NCBI GenBank assembly: GCA_017462545.1
Contig: JAFTQX010000019.1
Coordinates: forward strand, 1 to 58,498
Direction of reading: 5' to 3'
DNA length: 58,498 nucleotides
Origin: Clostridia bacterium
GTDB lineage: Bacteria; Bacillota; Clostridia; Oscillospirales; CAG-272
Shown here: one piece after another, positions 21,082-25,328 of the stretch
How positions within the stretch are numbered: the first letter of the stretch is position 1
Layout: the number at the start of each line of letters is the position of its first letter
The notes under the pieces: generated by a model
Told to the model about the DNA's origin: nothing
Databases searched by the model: none
Seen by the model: the letters and a program-made list of their open reading frames with translations, nothing else
Translations under genes and position numbers: made by a program

Positions 21082-21860
21082 TTATGCCTACTGTCAACCG
21101 TGAAAATCTGCACAAAGAGCATCGCAAACGCGTCAAAGAGCGTTTTTTGCGCAGCGGATTAGAGGATTTTGCCCCGCATGAGCTGCTGGAGATGCTGCTC
21201 TTCTACGCCATCCCACAAAAGGATACCAACGAGCTCGGTCATCGACTGATCGAACGTTTTGGCTCGCTCTCGCGCGTTTTTCACGCGTCCTATGAGGAGC
21301 TTTGCGAGGTAGAGGGCATTGGCGATCACGCCGCCACGCTCCTGCGCCTTTGGTTGCCGGCTGCCGCCTACATCCTGACAGACAATCTAAACGAGAGCAA
21401 GCAACGCTTTAACACGGTGGACAAGGTTGGTATGTATTTTATCAATCGCTACATCGGCGCCAAAAACGAGACCGTATATCTGATGCTGCTGGACAACCGT
21501 TTTTCCATGCTCGATTGTATACGGGTGCATGAGGGCTCTGTCAATTCGGTCAGCATTACCGCGCGCCGCCTGCTGGAGCTTGCGCTGCGCAGCAATGCCG
21601 CGATGGCTGTTTTGGCACATAACCACCCCATCGGTATTGCTGTCCCCTCCTCAGAGGATGTTGGCACCACGATGGCCCTGCGCGACTCCTTTGAGGCGAT
21701 CGGCATTCCCTTGCTGGAGCACATTCTGGTGGCCGGTGGAGAATATACGCCTATTTTACTGCGCAGCGAGCGGCAGCTTGCCGAAAGCAAAAGAGGTACA
21801 TCCTTTTACGCAAACTATACATTTCCAAACGAAGAGCGATTACAAAAGGAGCAATCATGA
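21078..21860 (+). CDS. radC: RadC family JAB-domain protein
   Basis: HELLEMLLFYAIP, HhH motif VEGIG, AHNHPIG..PSSED. Confidence 0.9.
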   Translation: MIMPTVNRENLHKEHRKRVKERFLRSGLEDFAPHELLEMLLFYAIPQKDTNELGHRLIERFGSLSRVFHASYEELCEVEGIGDHAATLLRLWLPAAAYILTDNLNESKQRFNTVDKVGMYFINRYIGAKNETVYLMLLDNRFSMLDCIRVHEGSVNSVSITARRLLELALRSNAAMAVLAHNHPIGIAVPSSEDVGTTMALRDSFEAIGIPLLEHILVAGGEYTPILLRSERQLAESKRGTSFYANYTFPNEERLQKEQS

Positions 21861-22588
21861 TCGTATCACATTATCACAGCGCACAGCGCGGCCTTACCCG
21901 CTCGCTGCGCATTGCCATTGTGGCAGATCTGCATAACGAGGCTGACGAGGCGCTTTATCAAAAGCTGCGTGAGGTGGCACCGGAATTTGTGGTGGTGCCG
22001 GGTGATTTTCTCAACGATGCCGAGCACAAGGACGGCGGCCTTGCCTTTTTGCGTGCCTGCGCCGCGCTCTACCCCACCTATTGCTCGATTGGCAATCATG
22101 AGCGAAAGGCGGCCTTGCCCGATCTTGCCGCTTCGGTCAGTGAAACGGGAGCCGAGCTGCTGGACAACCGCGCCATTTTCCGCCATGGCATGTGGATTGG
22201 CGGACTTTCCTCCGGCTGGGGAGAGGGAGAGCGGCAATCGCACCTTGCCAAGACCCCACCGCCCGACGTGGACTTTATTGACGATTTTGCCTCTCGCGAG
22301 GGGTGCCGTCTGCTGCTTTGCCACCACCCCGAGTATTATGAGCCGTATCTTTACGAAAAGAACATCCCCCTGATCATCTCCGGCCATGCCCACGGTGGCC
22401 AGTGGCATTTATTCGGCCACGGGATCTACGCCCCCGGTCAAGGCCTTTTCCCGCACTACACCTCCGGCTTTTATGATGGCCGCCTGCTGGTCAGCCGCGG
22501 GCTTTGCAAAACGCGCCCCTGGATCCCGCGCATCCATAACCCGCGCGAGCTGACGATTCTTGACCTGTGGCCGCAGCCGACGCGCTGA
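21857..22588 (+). CDS. Calcineurin-like metallophosphoesterase (YkuE-like)
   Basis: ADLH, PGD, GNHE, HHP, SGHAHGGQ and SRG motifs. Confidence 0.9.
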   Translation: MIVSHYHSAQRGLTRSLRIAIVADLHNEADEALYQKLREVAPEFVVVPGDFLNDAEHKDGGLAFLRACAALYPTYCSIGNHERKAALPDLAASVSETGAELLDNRAIFRHGMWIGGLSSGWGEGERQSHLAKTPPPDVDFIDDFASREGCRLLLCHHPEYYEPYLYEKNIPLIISGHAHGGQWHLFGHGIYAPGQGLFPHYTSGFYDGRLLVSRGLCKTRPWIPRIHNPRELTILDLWPQPTR

Positions 22589-22610
22589 TCTTCCCCTCCG
22601 CAACGTAATA

Positions 22611-22645
22611 GAAAAACAGCCCTGCCGAAGCAGGGCTGTTCTTTT
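22611..22645. terminator. Bidirectional intrinsic terminator
   Basis: AACAGCCCTGC-CGAA-GCAGGGCTGTT with T-rich tails on both strands. Confidence 0.85.
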
Positions 22646-22838
22646 AGAAAGGAGTCCTCTATGAAACGGGTCGCGCACAAGTCGCGGATGCGCGCCCGTA
22701 CTTTACCATTCCATGAGTACCGCAACATGGGCAGTCATGTAGCCATTATTGGGTATAAAACGGGTGGGATGGATACGCATATCTTTTTTCCTACCTTTCG
22801 TGATGGTTACATGCGCCGTAGCGCCTATGTCAGGTTGC

Positions 22839-23348
22839 CATTGGACCATACCTCAATTTCTGTGAAATAGGCTCTGCCGTTTTTATACATTCGGTGGCAG
22901 ACACCGTTTACTGTAAAAGCGGGTGCACAGGATCTTCTTGATCAAAACCTTCTTTCTATCTTCATCCATCAAAGCGGGTGACGTTCGGGGGACATCTCCC
23001 CTCGGGTTAGGTTTTTGCGAAAGGGATTCCTGTTTATAAAACGTAGAAAGGAGACGGAATCTATCTTCTCGACGTAAGTCTTCTTTGCCCGTTCCTACGC
23101 CTGTACGCTGACGTGGCCGGGGAGCTCTTTCAAAATAAAGGATCAACACGTATCCACTTCTTGTACATGGGTCTATACCTCCCTTTAATGCTTCGTGAGG
23201 TAGGCTTACGTGTACATGGGACCGCTCCTCCTTTTTTATTCAGAAACATACCTTGGGTAAATGCTTAACGGCGCATTGGACCGTACCTCCTGGATGATTT
23301 CGGGTGGCGTTCAATAGACTCTTCGTTGTGCATTGGACCGCACCTCCT
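22839..23348 (-). repeat. Five 18-nt SD-AUG cassettes, consensus (A/G)GGAGG(T/A)RYRG(T/A)CC(A/C)ATG
   Basis: Copies at 23331-23348, 23274-23291, 23215-23232, 23166-23183 and 22839-22856 (last copy has TTGAGG at the SD). Confidence 0.85.
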
Positions 23349-23677
23349 GTTTATTTTGCCGGGATATGCCATGTGTGCGATCACCGCCGGTGATCTTTTT
23401 CTCTCTTCTTCTTCTCTTCTAACCTTCGGCACGCTCCTCGCGTGCGGTTGCACACATCGCTATATAAAAAGCGCCCAAGCCGGAAAACCTTCGTTTTGCG
23501 GTTTGTGCGCCAATTATCTTGTTCTGGTTCGGGCATTTGGGGGATCGATCTTATTTGCCCGTTTGGTGGCACATCAAAAACCGCGCATGAGCATCGCTCG
23601 TCAGAATTTTAGTCATTACGCGCATTTTTGCCACCCCTTTCGGTTTGAATTTGGCTATTTTGCCTCTTTTCACTTAC

Positions 23678-23706
23678 AGTATAGCAGAGGCTTTTCGATT
23701 TGTCAA
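23678..23706 (-). promoter_or_regulatory. Strong sigma-A promoter with AT-rich UP element
   Basis: TTGACA-17 bp-TATACT, extended -10 TG, A/T tracts at 23711-23739. Confidence 0.8.
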
Positions 23707-23750
23707 CCCCTTTTTTAAAATTTTTTCAAAAAATTTTTTGAGGGGGCACA

Positions 23751-24728
23751 TCACTTGCCGAGTGCCTCCAGCAGCGTAGGCATGATGGTTGCCAATACAT
23801 CCTCCGGGCAGCCGTTCAGGGTGCAGCCCGCGGCGCGGACATGGCCGCCGCCACCAAAGGCCTGCGCCACCGCGCTCACATTCGCCTCTACCGAGCGAAG
23901 GGAGACCTTGCTCACCCCCCCCGGCAGCTCACGCACGACCAGGGCGATCTCCACCCCCGCCATCGAGCGAGGGATGTCCACCGCTGTCTCAAAATCATCA
24001 TCCGAAAGGCCTGCGCGGTCGGCAAGCGTTAAGCATACCGCCCCAATGCGCCCGCCTGCGTGTACCGAAAGGCGAGACATGGCGATTTTTTCAGCCGCCA
24101 GCTGCTCGGGCGTGCGACTATCATACAGCAAATGGTTGATCTTATCCGCCTGGATACCCGAGGCGTGCAGCGCGGCCGCAATGCGGTGCGTTTCTGCTGT
24201 GACGTTGGAATACTTAAAGCAGCCGGTATCCGACGAGATGGCGGCATAGATCGCGCCGGCCACGGATACATCGATCTTTGTCAGCGCGCCGCGCGCGCAA
24301 AGCCGCTCGGCCAGGTGATAGATCACCTCGCCCGCCGCTGCGGCATGTGGGCAGATCAGCGAGGGGGCAAAGGCACAGCCCACCTCATGATGGTCAAGCA
24401 TCAGATGAACGCCGCCCGGCAGATATTCCTCGGCAAGAGAGCCAAGCTGCATGGGGGATGCCACATCTACCGCGATCACGGTGCCGCCCTTGTTCTCCTC
24501 TGCCGTGGCCATATCCAGCCCGTCAAACAGGAAGGCAAGGCGGCGGGGCAGCGGATCGGCACAGCGCCAAGCGGCCTTTTTATGTAGCCGCGCCAGAATA
24601 TGACAGAGCGCGGCGGCAGAGCCGACCGTATCCCCATCCGGGTGGGCATGGGAGAGGACGATGGGACGCTCGGCTGCAAGCAGCGTGTCACAAACCTCGT
24701 CCGGCGTCAGGCAAGGAAAATCACTCAT
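23751..24728 (-). CDS. nrnA: DHH/DHHA1 phosphoesterase (nanoRNase/pAp phosphatase)
   Basis: HAHPDGD, LDHH, SDTGCF, SLRS and GGGGHVRAAG motifs; start at MSDF overlapping the rbfA stop. Confidence 0.9.
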   Translation of the reverse strand: MSDFPCLTPDEVCDTLLAAERPIVLSHAHPDGDTVGSAAALCHILARLHKKAAWRCADPLPRRLAFLFDGLDMATAEENKGGTVIAVDVASPMQLGSLAEEYLPGGVHLMLDHHEVGCAFAPSLICPHAAAAGEVIYHLAERLCARGALTKIDVSVAGAIYAAISSDTGCFKYSNVTAETHRIAAALHASGIQADKINHLLYDSRTPEQLAAEKIAMSRLSVHAGGRIGAVCLTLADRAGLSDDDFETAVDIPRSMAGVEIALVVRELPGGVSKVSLRSVEANVSAVAQAFGGGGHVRAAGCTLNGCPEDVLATIMPTLLEALGK

Positions 24729-25122
24729 GCTCTGCCTCCTCGGCGGCAGCGGCCGCCTCGGCCTGCTCACGCGCAAGTCGCGCATCTGCCTCATGAATAT
24801 CCGAAAGGAGGCGGGCAATATGCGCACCATGCTCGATCGAGCCATCAGCCGTAAAGAGCAGATCGGGCGTCAGGCGCAAATTCAGCGTGACGGCCAAATG
24901 GTGGCGCAGCTTTCCCTTGGCAGCCTCCAGCGCGGCCTTGGCCTCCTTTTGGTTGCCAAGCGCAGAAAAATACACACGCGCCACCTTCAAATCGGCGGCG
25001 ACCTCTGCCCGCGTGATGCTGACAAAATGATCGATCAAGCGCGGATCACGCAGCTCCCGCAGGCAAACCGCCAGCTCCTGCGCCACCGCATCGTTGATTC
25101 TTCCTCTTCTGTATTTCGCCAT
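24721..25122 (-). CDS. rbfA: Ribosome-binding factor A
   Basis: LRDPRL, SITRAEVAADLKVARVY and LRLTPDLLF..DGSIEHG motifs. Confidence 0.95.
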   Translation of the reverse strand: MAKYRRGRINDAVAQELAVCLRELRDPRLIDHFVSITRAEVAADLKVARVYFSALGNQKEAKAALEAAKGKLRHHLAVTLNLRLTPDLLFTADGSIEHGAHIARLLSDIHEADARLAREQAEAAAAAEEAEHE

Positions 25123-25328
25123 ATTTCCCATCCTCCTTGCTTGTTATCATTATATTATATCACAGAAAAAAGCCGCTTACAAGGGGTGGTGCAAAAATAA
25201 AGCAGCCTTTGTATGGAAAAGATAGAAAAATTTGCCGTTTGTCTTGCTTTTTTGCCATGTGTGTGCTATACTGAACGCGAAAGCCCCTAAGGGCAAAATT
25301 TGACTTTTCGTGACAAGGAGAGCACAAC

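Follow-up and report, generated by a model that had tools for sequence, protein, structure and literature searches.

Minigenes, as known from bar of phage lambda and from synthetic constructs, combine a Shine-Dalgarno (SD) sequence, an AUG, one to few sense codons and a stop codon under a strong promoter. SD-type 5′ stabilizers, exemplified by the cryIIIA STAB-SD and the ermC leader, precede a normal gene, while leader-peptide attenuators place a short open reading frame (ORF), which abuts or overlaps a hairpin, ahead of a regulated gene. Dual-function RNAs, such as Staphylococcus aureus RNAIII/hld, Bacillus subtilis SR1/SR1P and SgrS/SgrT, measure 0.2–1 kb, have their own promoter and terminator, and carry a conserved ORF of ~25–45 codons. 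The last class has a review of its own (PMC12612679, in excerpt). Excerpts of PMC5737220 describe how initiating ribosomes at a strong SD block ribonuclease (RNase) J1 on the B. subtilis hbs mRNA; excerpts of the same article and of PMC3868564 give precedents for an anti-SD sequence that pairs from the 3′ untranslated region (UTR), namely in the hbs 5′/3′-UTR and in S. aureus icaR. Here, we analyzed a 58,498-nt contig of a Clostridia bacterium (JAFTQX010000019.1, assembly GCA_017462545.1; hereafter the window), which contains on its minus strand, between positions 22612 and 23671, an element that shares features of minigenes, SD stabilizers, dual-function RNAs and attenuators, with a full fit to none of them.

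We tentatively favor, with a belief that stops slightly short of even, the interpretation that the element is one minus-strand gene for a highly expressed, ribosome-engaging micro-ORF RNA. It would be transcribed from ~23671 to 22612 from a promoter of the ribosomal RNA (rRNA)/transfer RNA (tRNA) type, would end at a bidirectional hairpin, and would give an RNA made for ribosome occupancy rather than a folded non-coding RNA (ncRNA). In the proposed 5′-to-3′ order, the parts are a small ORF (smORF1), a terminator-like hairpin with a U/A tract, two further hairpins, four tandem start-stop modules, smORF C, a fifth module, smORF Z, an anti-SD-like stretch and the terminator. What is directly observed is the presence of these signals, how they are conserved, and a coding-type substitution pattern in smORFs Z and C. 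Throughout, G000 denotes the genome to which the window belongs, and G096, G124, G154 and G159 denote other species of the same genus, which are compared with the window element.

The promoter is located at 23678–23745 of the minus strand. It consists of an A/T-rich UP element (23707–23745), a −35 box TTGACA (23706–23701), a 17-nt spacer, and a −10 box TATACT (23683–23678) that is extended by a preceding TG. The two boxes agree with the consensus at 11 of 12 positions, and the promoter is near-invariant among the homologues. The UP element together with the −35 box (23699–23745) resembles three other sites of G000 at 83–88% identity, two of which precede a 16S rRNA gene and the third a tRNA gene, and all three face off the end of a contig; in 40 relatives, BLAST recovers only the promoter piece of the region, often close to contig ends. 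To judge from these likenesses, the promoter is of the stable-RNA (rRNA/tRNA) type of the lineage, and high expression is therefore plausible. Apart from the element itself, we observed that a common UP sequence (A/T runs around TTTTTGAAAAAA) marks rRNA/tRNA promoters across the order, on contigs C42, C60 and C66 of G000 and in many relatives. This sequence is often found at the ends of assembly contigs and could help locate stable-RNA genes in such genomes.

Starting 7 nt past the −10 box and ending at the U-tract of the terminator, the predicted minus-strand transcript covers 22612–23671 (~1,060 nt, both ends predicted), and it is homologous along its full length in four other species. The intrinsic terminator (22612–22638, minus strand) contains a stem formed by 22638–22630 and 22625–22617, the loop UUCG, and a U-tract at 22616–22612. 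A repeat search delimits the hairpin arms as 22609–22625 and 22630–22646 (17 nt each, 88% complementary, 4-nt loop), and an independent terminator scan also recovered the 22609–22646 hairpin, which is bidirectional because an A-run lies on one side and a T-run on the other. A second terminator scan did not report it; the same scan gave three terminator-like plus-strand hairpins inside the region versus 2.2 expected, which is not significant. Among the homologues, the same hairpin occurs in G096 and G154, and a different hairpin occupies that place in G124 and G159. When ORFs of 100 aa or longer are taken to stand for genes, the widest gap in the window begins at 22589, and the G+C fraction of 22646–23677 is 0.482, versus 0.601 and 0.633 in the flanking genes and 0.570 in the whole window. 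A sequence-only reading of the window had claimed an independent ~1,060-nt minus-strand unit in its largest gene-free and less GC-rich stretch, with a leftward TTGACA-17-TATACT promoter (TG-extended, with an AT-rich UP element), a bidirectional hairpin terminator, a local hairpin GATCACC-GGC-GGTGATC (at 23379–23395) and several repeated motifs, directly downstream of rbfA-nrnA. All of these were recovered, and the abundance it supposed is made plausible by the promoter type shared with 16S rRNA and tRNA genes.

The recurring feature of the element is a start-stop module, which on the minus strand reads GGAGG (or GAGG), 8–9 nt ending in GUCC(A/C), and ATG, and which is found five times. The sequence CATNGGNCNNNNCCTCC is present in five copies, at 22839, 23166, 23215, 23274 and 23331, with the minus-strand reading GGAGG..GTCCAATG; when up to three mismatches are allowed, the motif gives 4 matches versus 0.66 expected, a number reached in 2 of 100 shuffles. 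A further sequence, AAAGCGGGTG, is found three times in the unit. Units 2, 3 and 5 are 3-codon frames, each with its stop two codons past the ATG; the frames of units 1 and 4 are longer, at 22 and 12 codons. Specifically, units 1 and 2 lie within 23265–23347 (minus strand, as are all units): unit 1 has GGAGG at 23347–23343 and ATG at 23333–23331, its 22-codon frame running into unit 2, and unit 2 has GGAGG at 23290–23286, ATG at 23276–23274, two codons, and TAA at 23267–23265. Both are kept in the four close homologues, with unit 1 as a 3-codon frame in G096 and G154. Unit 3 (23206–23231) reads GGAGG, spacer, ATG TAC ACG TAA, and has matching 3-codon frames in G096, G154 and G159. Unit 4 (23130–23183), with GGGAGG, ATG at 23168–23166 and the 12-codon frame, sits in a stretch of ~135 nt (~23030–23165) that is present in this species only and that the homologues lack. 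Unit 5 (22830–22854) reads GAGG, spacer, ATG GCA ACC TGA; in all five species, it is found as ATG GCA plus 0–1 codon plus a stop, and the length of its frame is constant although the stop and the third codon vary. The same holds for the module frames of the homologues at large, which have 2–3 codons with varying stops and third codons at constant length.

In G000, the module AGGTANNGTCCAATGNNNNNNTAR is confined to this element. We collected 89 distinct modules from 48 loci with a pattern that leaves everything after the ATG unspecified, and 81 of them have 2–3 sense codons including the AUG; the same is true for 38 of 46 modules in a subset without selection for a stop codon, where chance, as estimated from stop-codon frequency, would give ~1 in 10. 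Of 102 GGT-N4-TCC sites in the elements, 86 have N-ATG behind them and 2 have GTG, and the start codon belongs to the motif. The stop is mainly TAA (65 of 86), and the second codon is mainly GCA, AAA or AGA; an excerpt of PMC1397820 reports Ala at position 2 as enriched in highly expressed genes. No assembled copy of the 16S rRNA 3′ end was found in G000 or in the five relatives searched. The conserved GUCC of the spacer could in principle extend pairing with the 16S 3′ tail past the CCUCC core. The modules show the combination that marks a minigene, i.e., SD, AUG, 1–3 further sense codons and a stop, with 3 codons in units 2, 3 and 5 of the window, and, as with lambda bar, they stand behind a strong promoter and have copies in phage-like contigs. 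Unlike bar, however, they are parts of a conserved stand-alone cellular gene, with up to five per RNA, and they come with a conserved ..GUCCA spacer, favored second codons, and longer conserved small ORFs alongside.

For these longer ORFs, synonymous and nonsynonymous codon differences were counted over all sequence pairs, in frame and in the two shifted frames; the counts are indicative only, because the subfamily set comprises five sequences and those of G096 and G154 are near-identical. smORF Z (22703–22798, minus strand) has an SD region at 22798–22789, ATG at 22780–22778, 25 codons, and a stop at 22705–22703. It is present as a 23–26-codon ORF with an SD in all five species, with a conserved core NGY.T.....LMEW, and Leu is retained via CTC, CTG and TTG. 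Its core shows 26 synonymous and 41 nonsynonymous differences, versus 9/62 and 4/70 in the shifted frames. smORF C (22969–22883, minus strand) has 28 codons, is Lys-rich with two Cys, and is preceded by an 8-codon frame (22995–22969, minus strand) that overlaps its start via TGATG. In four species, its 20-codon core gives 30 synonymous and 21 nonsynonymous differences versus 1/42 and 2/46 in the shifted frames, with 3, 5 and 12 variable columns at the first, second and third codon positions. By these counts, smORF Z appears to be under coding-type selection, with smORF C less secure; purifying selection would thus extend over 5/5 species for Z, and C is lost or shifted in 2/5. Together with the predicted, conserved promoter and terminator, which indicate an independent transcript, and a length in the range of 0.2–1 kb, such an ORF recalls the dual-function RNAs, yet the element has no sequence or Rfam similarity to them and carries several ORFs and start-stop modules instead of one ORF. 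smORF1 (23551–23625, minus strand; 24 codons plus stop, with the SD GGGGTG 6 nt upstream) is leader-like. In four species it has equal length and keeps the codons at both ends, and in G159 it is reduced to 14 codons; its counts are 10/45 versus 4/43 and 5/49 in the shifted frames, and in the predicted fold its SD and AUG pair with the ORF's own 3′ part, which would hide the SD.

Conserved ORFs are restricted to the minus strand, the only one on which the conserved features as a whole make sense. The sole long ORF within the unit (23326–23718, plus strand, 130 aa) has no Pfam match and is not conserved; likewise, a plus-strand ORF of 69 aa (22661–22870) and a minus-strand ORF of 88 aa have no Pfam match and are unconserved, and all three were rejected as ordinary genes. 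The four small peptides have no Pfam or NCBIfam match at E ≤ 10. A protein homologue search with the 48-aa open frame around smORF Z gave no candidate, a negative of little weight, as gene callers rarely report ORFs so short.

The genus is very diverse; the best match to the NrnA-like protein encoded next to the element is 51% identical. A BLAST search of 22646–23690 against 213 genomes of the genus found the element in G096, G124 and G154 at ~75% identity, and a sequence-only model of its 3′ part found a more distant copy in G159 (E 5e-15), so that the conservation in relatives asked for by the earlier reading is borne out. All five copies have their parts in one order, and conservation extends over the promoter and the initial 50 nt of the transcript. 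A search of genome contigs with a 20-mer from the smORF C block returned the three species found by BLAST and 11 unrelated chance matches, and nothing else; in metagenome contigs, an NrnA protein query gave 0 confirmed loci, and a two-part pattern of unit 5 and the end of smORF Z gave 0 as well. The upstream genes vary among the species, and the convergent phosphoesterase gene is common to the window and G154 only. We also rejected synteny with rbfA-nrnA: all 27 loci of the genus where NrnA was matched and 200 nt or more of downstream sequence was available lack an SD-ATG unit within 1.5 kb, and 26 of them have a stop-to-stop frame of at least 150 codons inside that stretch. NrnA is thus directly abutted by long open frames in other species, and the position of the element is not conserved. 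Separately, G154 carries a Gut-1 RNA (RF01706; L056:2142–2212, minus strand; 57.5 bits versus a cut-off of 50) between the terminator of its element and the convergent metallophosphoesterase gene, and the window has no Gut-1 match at the corresponding place.

Weak matches of the 3′-part model in other genomes of the genus all proved to be the module just behind a strong TG-extended promoter. The module AGGTANNGTCCAATGNNNNNNTAR is present in 42 of 213 genus genomes (reversed control, 0 of 213) and in 14 of 401 genomes sampled from the order, which belong to six families (control, 1). To judge from these matches, the module is the marker of a wider RNA family and not a chance motif. Typical members of this wider family are 380–690 nt long and share the layout promoter, 1–4 modules, CACGGCGGUG hairpin, (A/U)UUAUAUAG, variable body, 9-codon ORF and terminator. 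Their TG-extended promoter starts 42–50 nt ahead of the first module in 22 of 35 loci; the GC hairpin is followed by CGC-(A/U)UUAUAUAG, like the tract behind the hairpin of the window, and a related CAC(C)GGCGGUG hairpin is found too. The 9-codon ORF is preceded by GAAAG.GAGGA and has the consensus M-L-D-T/I-K-S-E-Q-K. Its stop lies within the 5′ arm of the terminator, where TGA, TAA or TAG is matched by TCA, TTA or CTA in the 3′ arm. A covariance model of this 9-codon-ORF/terminator module gave a full-length match in 48 of 150 other genus genomes (18 of 54 high-quality ones) and in 0 of the 5 genomes with the type of the window. These data fit the view that the window element would be a divergent subfamily, i.e., that one gene family exists in two forms. 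Around one third of the genus genomes are carriers, with 1–2 family loci per genome. Of 26 family loci with a downstream ORF of at least 90 codons, 21 have it in convergent orientation, and only close species pairs have flanking genes in common; since downstream ORFs are mostly convergent and flanks are not conserved, the family consists of stand-alone genes, not leaders.

The module also occurs in phage-like DNA. In IMG/VR, 37 contigs match the pattern, of which 12 AT-rich, phage-like contigs (L151, L157, L158, L160, L165, L169, L172, L174, L175, L177, L180 and L181) read as true members with a promoter, two modules and a terminator; the remainder comprises two or three possible members and otherwise what look like chance matches inside coding sequence. 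The phage-like unit of ~170 nt contains a TTGACA-17-TATAAT promoter, a module, a second module with a 3–5-codon frame, and a terminator, with no longer small ORF. It is followed by a new promoter and a gene for a DnaE-like protein of 1,322 aa (PHP, DNA_pol3_alpha, finger, HHH_6; L172:1926–5891). Elsewhere in IMG/VR, a module stands at L155:2704–2727 in a ~1.6-kb gap between two tRNA genes of an array of at least 17 tRNA genes; the gap has no Rfam match.

Several local hairpins accompany the modules. Downstream of smORF1, a long imperfect, terminator-like hairpin (within 23460–23511, minus strand) runs from 23511 to 23471 and is followed by UUUUUAUAUAG; this predicted hairpin may be an attenuator or a processing site. 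The arrangement of a leader ORF followed by a hairpin and the U-tract UUUUU is conserved in 5/5 species, as are the outer stem and the U/A tract, and the inner-stem sequences differ. The hairpin GCACGC-GAGGA-GCGUGC (23429–23445, minus strand) has an invariant stem in four species and is not alignable in G159. In the hairpin GAUCACC-GGC-GGUGAUC (23379–23395, minus strand), two stem pairs covary (GC/AU/GU and UA/CG/UG), and GAUC...GAUC switches to GGCC...GGCC among species. The G-U pairs of this hairpin in G124 and G154 would be C-A mismatches if read on the other strand, and therefore the minus strand fits and the plus strand does not. Just ahead of the terminator, an anti-SD-like stretch, CUCCUUUCU (22646–22654, minus strand), is conserved in the window, G096, G124 and G154 and absent from G159; the predicted fold shows it paired to the SD of one of the units. 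As in the icaR and hbs cases, this stretch could thus pair with an SD of its own RNA. Unlike in those cases, the pairing is predicted, the stretch is absent in G159, and the same letters could be a plus-strand SD. On the plus strand past the bidirectional terminator, 22646–22663 reads AGAAAGGAG, 7 nt, ATG, and the frame behind it has 69 codons in the window, 35 in G124 and 4 in G096, with G154 reading like G096 from the alignment. These frames are not conserved, and the site may either mirror the anti-SD-like stretch of the minus-strand RNA or act as a separate start-stop site.

At the RNA level, an animal-gut metatranscriptome (X4) and three DNA runs were compared with 21400–25300; ten runs had matched in the sequence index, X7 to X10 of them with small shares only, and uncovered parts in the compared runs are no evidence of absence. 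X4 contains a 376-nt contig over 22928–23303 with 3 differences and a 401-nt contig over 22660–22957 with 30 differences and 3 gaps, and further contigs share the short blocks 22734–22767, 22914–22957 and 23273–23312 and then diverge from the window. Its depth is zero on 21400–22578 and 23758–25300, flanks that the DNA runs X3 and X5 do cover. Such a pattern is as expected from an abundant RNA of this species and its relatives, which is support and not proof. The transcription proposed by the sequence-only reading stands in this part: RNA-library contigs fall on the unit and none on the flanking genes, while strand and ends were not seen. Separately, one X4 contig links 22957 to 23273 and omits the part with 23030–23165 and unit 4, which suggests that expressed relatives carry a shorter form.

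In the interpretation we favor, the modules would load ribosomes that initiate and then terminate at once, and, by analogy with hbs, the resulting ribosome cover would shield the RNA against 5′-to-3′ decay by RNase J after processing, for which the AU-rich tract past the 23511–23471 hairpin is a candidate site. smORF1 and its hairpin would set the share of transcripts that continue into the body, and the RNA would yield one or two microproteins, Z and perhaps C; that Z and the 9-codon ORF are conserved in their amino acids argues for a product. A partial likeness to SD-type stabilizers (cryIIIA STAB-SD, ermC leader, hbs mRNA) lies in a strong SD ~45–50 nt past the promoter in 22 of 35 loci of the wider family, and in RNase J, which scores above the curated cut-off in G096, G124, G154 and G159; RNase Y is present in G000. 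In contrast to those stabilizers, no normal gene follows here, the modules have both a start and a stop, and they are repeated and, in the subfamily of the window, internal.

Several points weigh against this interpretation. Unit 1 of the window lies ~325 nt from the predicted start, with only the weaker SD of smORF1 nearby, and a role as 5′ stabilizer therefore needs an assumed processing step; a search of G000 (81% complete) for RNase J itself found none. In the phage-like copies there are just two mini-ORFs and no longer ORF, which points to a function of the mini-ORFs themselves. Transcription rests on the contigs of one RNA run, which was chosen by this very sequence, DNA may occur in RNA libraries, and the contigs give neither strand nor transcript ends; translation of the modules and small ORFs is a prediction from sequence. 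The subfamily amounts to five sequences, two of them near-identical. smORF1 has a weak coding signature, and conservation at its two ends may reflect a hairpin instead. For smORF C, the amino acids are not conserved in G159, the frame of G154 is shifted from the start codon, and the start context varies. Finally, folds that are better than those of shuffled sequences, as described below, may leave room for some structure-based role.

The main rival, though unlikely, is that start-stop translation is itself the function, i.e., that a very abundant RNA ties up 30S subunits, ribosomes and initiator tRNA, or releases peptidyl-tRNA, and so tunes or poisons translation in the manner of the lambda bar minigenes, with the longer ORFs being secondary. 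The module alone is common to the window type, the wider family and the 12 phage-like contigs, what is conserved in it is the length of the 2–3-codon frame and not a peptide, its stop is TAA in most cases, and the dosage of an RNA from an rRNA-type promoter would follow ribosome synthesis. A pure titration RNA would not need the conserved amino acids of Z and of the 9-codon ORF, however, and the family is found in only about a third of the genus genomes. Natural minigenes are, to our knowledge, a curiosity of lambda with no established cellular role. That minigenes of 3–8 codons sequester tRNA as peptidyl-tRNA is described in an excerpt of PMC2490762. It is also conceivable, if improbable, that these elements represent a new gene class, in which a stable-RNA-promoted transcript with tandem start-stop frames behind an extended bipartite SD serves, order-wide and in some phages, to dock or cycle ribosomes and set translation capacity, the peptides being by-products or co-products. 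More doubtful still, we consider the view of the sequence-only reading, that of a structured, trans-acting regulatory ncRNA, in which SD-like motifs would be sites for protein binding or base pairing, e.g., as a sponge, and small frames would be incidental. The element has no long ORF and no protein family match, both of its halves are more stable than 100 of 100 shuffles (z −2.74 and −2.77), and one hairpin shows clear compensatory changes. Yet RNAalifold on the five sequences gives 58 pairs for the 5′ module, 6 showing compensatory change, at a covariation term of +3.4, and 43 pairs for the 3′ module, 7 with compensatory change, with a total of −14.2 kcal/mol and a covariation term of +1.19; positive terms are penalizing. 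Conserved secondary structure thus appears weak in these models, with clear covariation in the 23379–23395 hairpin alone, and the covariation check did not uphold a structured RNA. Nor did the claim of a large ncRNA with no real protein gene fare well: the conserved parts are mostly translation signals and tiny frames, and the substitutions in Z and C follow codon phase. A repeated GGA motif on an abundant RNA recalls sponges of the CsrB/RsmZ type; here, however, the GGA motifs are SDs at fixed spacing from an AUG and not in loops, a protein-binding site needs neither the start codon nor the early stop conserved in the motif, and the CsrA Pfam family was not found in G000 (81% complete). Overall, the element gives the impression of translation signals and tiny ORFs strung together, along with a few hairpins of local extent, and not of an ornate large RNA.

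Known RNA families offer no counterpart. Rfam 15 at gathering score gives 0 matches in the whole window, and at E ≤ 10 within 22400–23900 the best match is RT-6 (E 0.028; 22.9 versus 46.7 bits), which falls on the promoter on the opposite strand. ARAGORN found no tRNA or transfer-messenger RNA (tmRNA), and 27 related loci have no Rfam match on the element. We rejected tmRNA, RNase P, 6S, SRP, OLE, GOLLD, ROOL, HEARO, raiA and others, all of which remain below the Rfam gathering score. The sequence-only reading was right in seeing no tmRNA, RNase P or intron here and no described family, and the lack of an Rfam match, known large RNAs included, itself speaks against a structured ncRNA. It is very unlikely that the mini-ORFs and hairpins instead form a cis-acting leader or attenuator, which controls read-through into neighbors or antisense transcription into the convergent gene. 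smORF1 is indeed followed by a hairpin and a U-tract, the stop of the 9-codon ORF is part of the terminator's 5′ arm and changes in concert with the 3′ arm, so that a translating ribosome would melt the terminator, and the phage-like unit stands directly upstream of a DNA polymerase gene. Attenuators, however, have a regulated downstream gene and a regulatory codon run, both lacking here: the next gene of the window is convergent, as in 21 of 26 family loci, flanking genes are conserved in close species pairs only, and the phage-like copies own a terminator, with a new promoter preceding the polymerase gene. The inducible cat/cmlA genes have 9-codon leaders, a likeness that rests on length alone. 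Least probable of all, and by our estimate scarcely credible, is that the region is non-functional DNA, i.e., what is left, with its promoter, of a gene cluster in decay or of a mobile element. Its G+C is below that of the flanks, its genomic position differs between species, and the ~135-nt stretch with unit 4 is found in this species only; against this, five species at ~75% identity or below keep the parts in one order, near-invariant blocks included, and the family extends across six families of the order at 1–2 loci per genome. Also against it, there is no similarity to transposase or phage genes and there are no flanking repeats.

For the ribosome-engaging RNA that we favor, annotation skips such tiny ORFs and RNA-family libraries hold no likeness, and the gene is therefore invisible to both; no paper with the module letters, and none whose title or abstract opening describes such a family, was found in the collection of open PMC papers and bioRxiv preprints that was searched. 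The gene probably belongs to the most strongly promoted ones of these gut and rumen Clostridia. The distribution of the module, a near-ideal ribosome start site with a stop after two codons (42 of 213 genus species, several families of the order, and phage-like contigs) makes a routine function a poor explanation. If the modules act as ribosome-dependent RNA stabilizers, they would be a ready-made expression part for Firmicutes; if start-stop translation is the function, the gene would give the lambda minigenes their first cellular counterpart.

The element is flanked by genes for RbfA (24721–25131, minus strand), for an NrnA-like DHH/DHHA1 protein (23751–24845, minus strand), and, convergent to it, for a metallophosphoesterase (21857–22588, plus strand). 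A second NrnA-like DHH gene of the same genome is located at G000:C14:1608–2567, and its product is 41% identical to the copy in the window.

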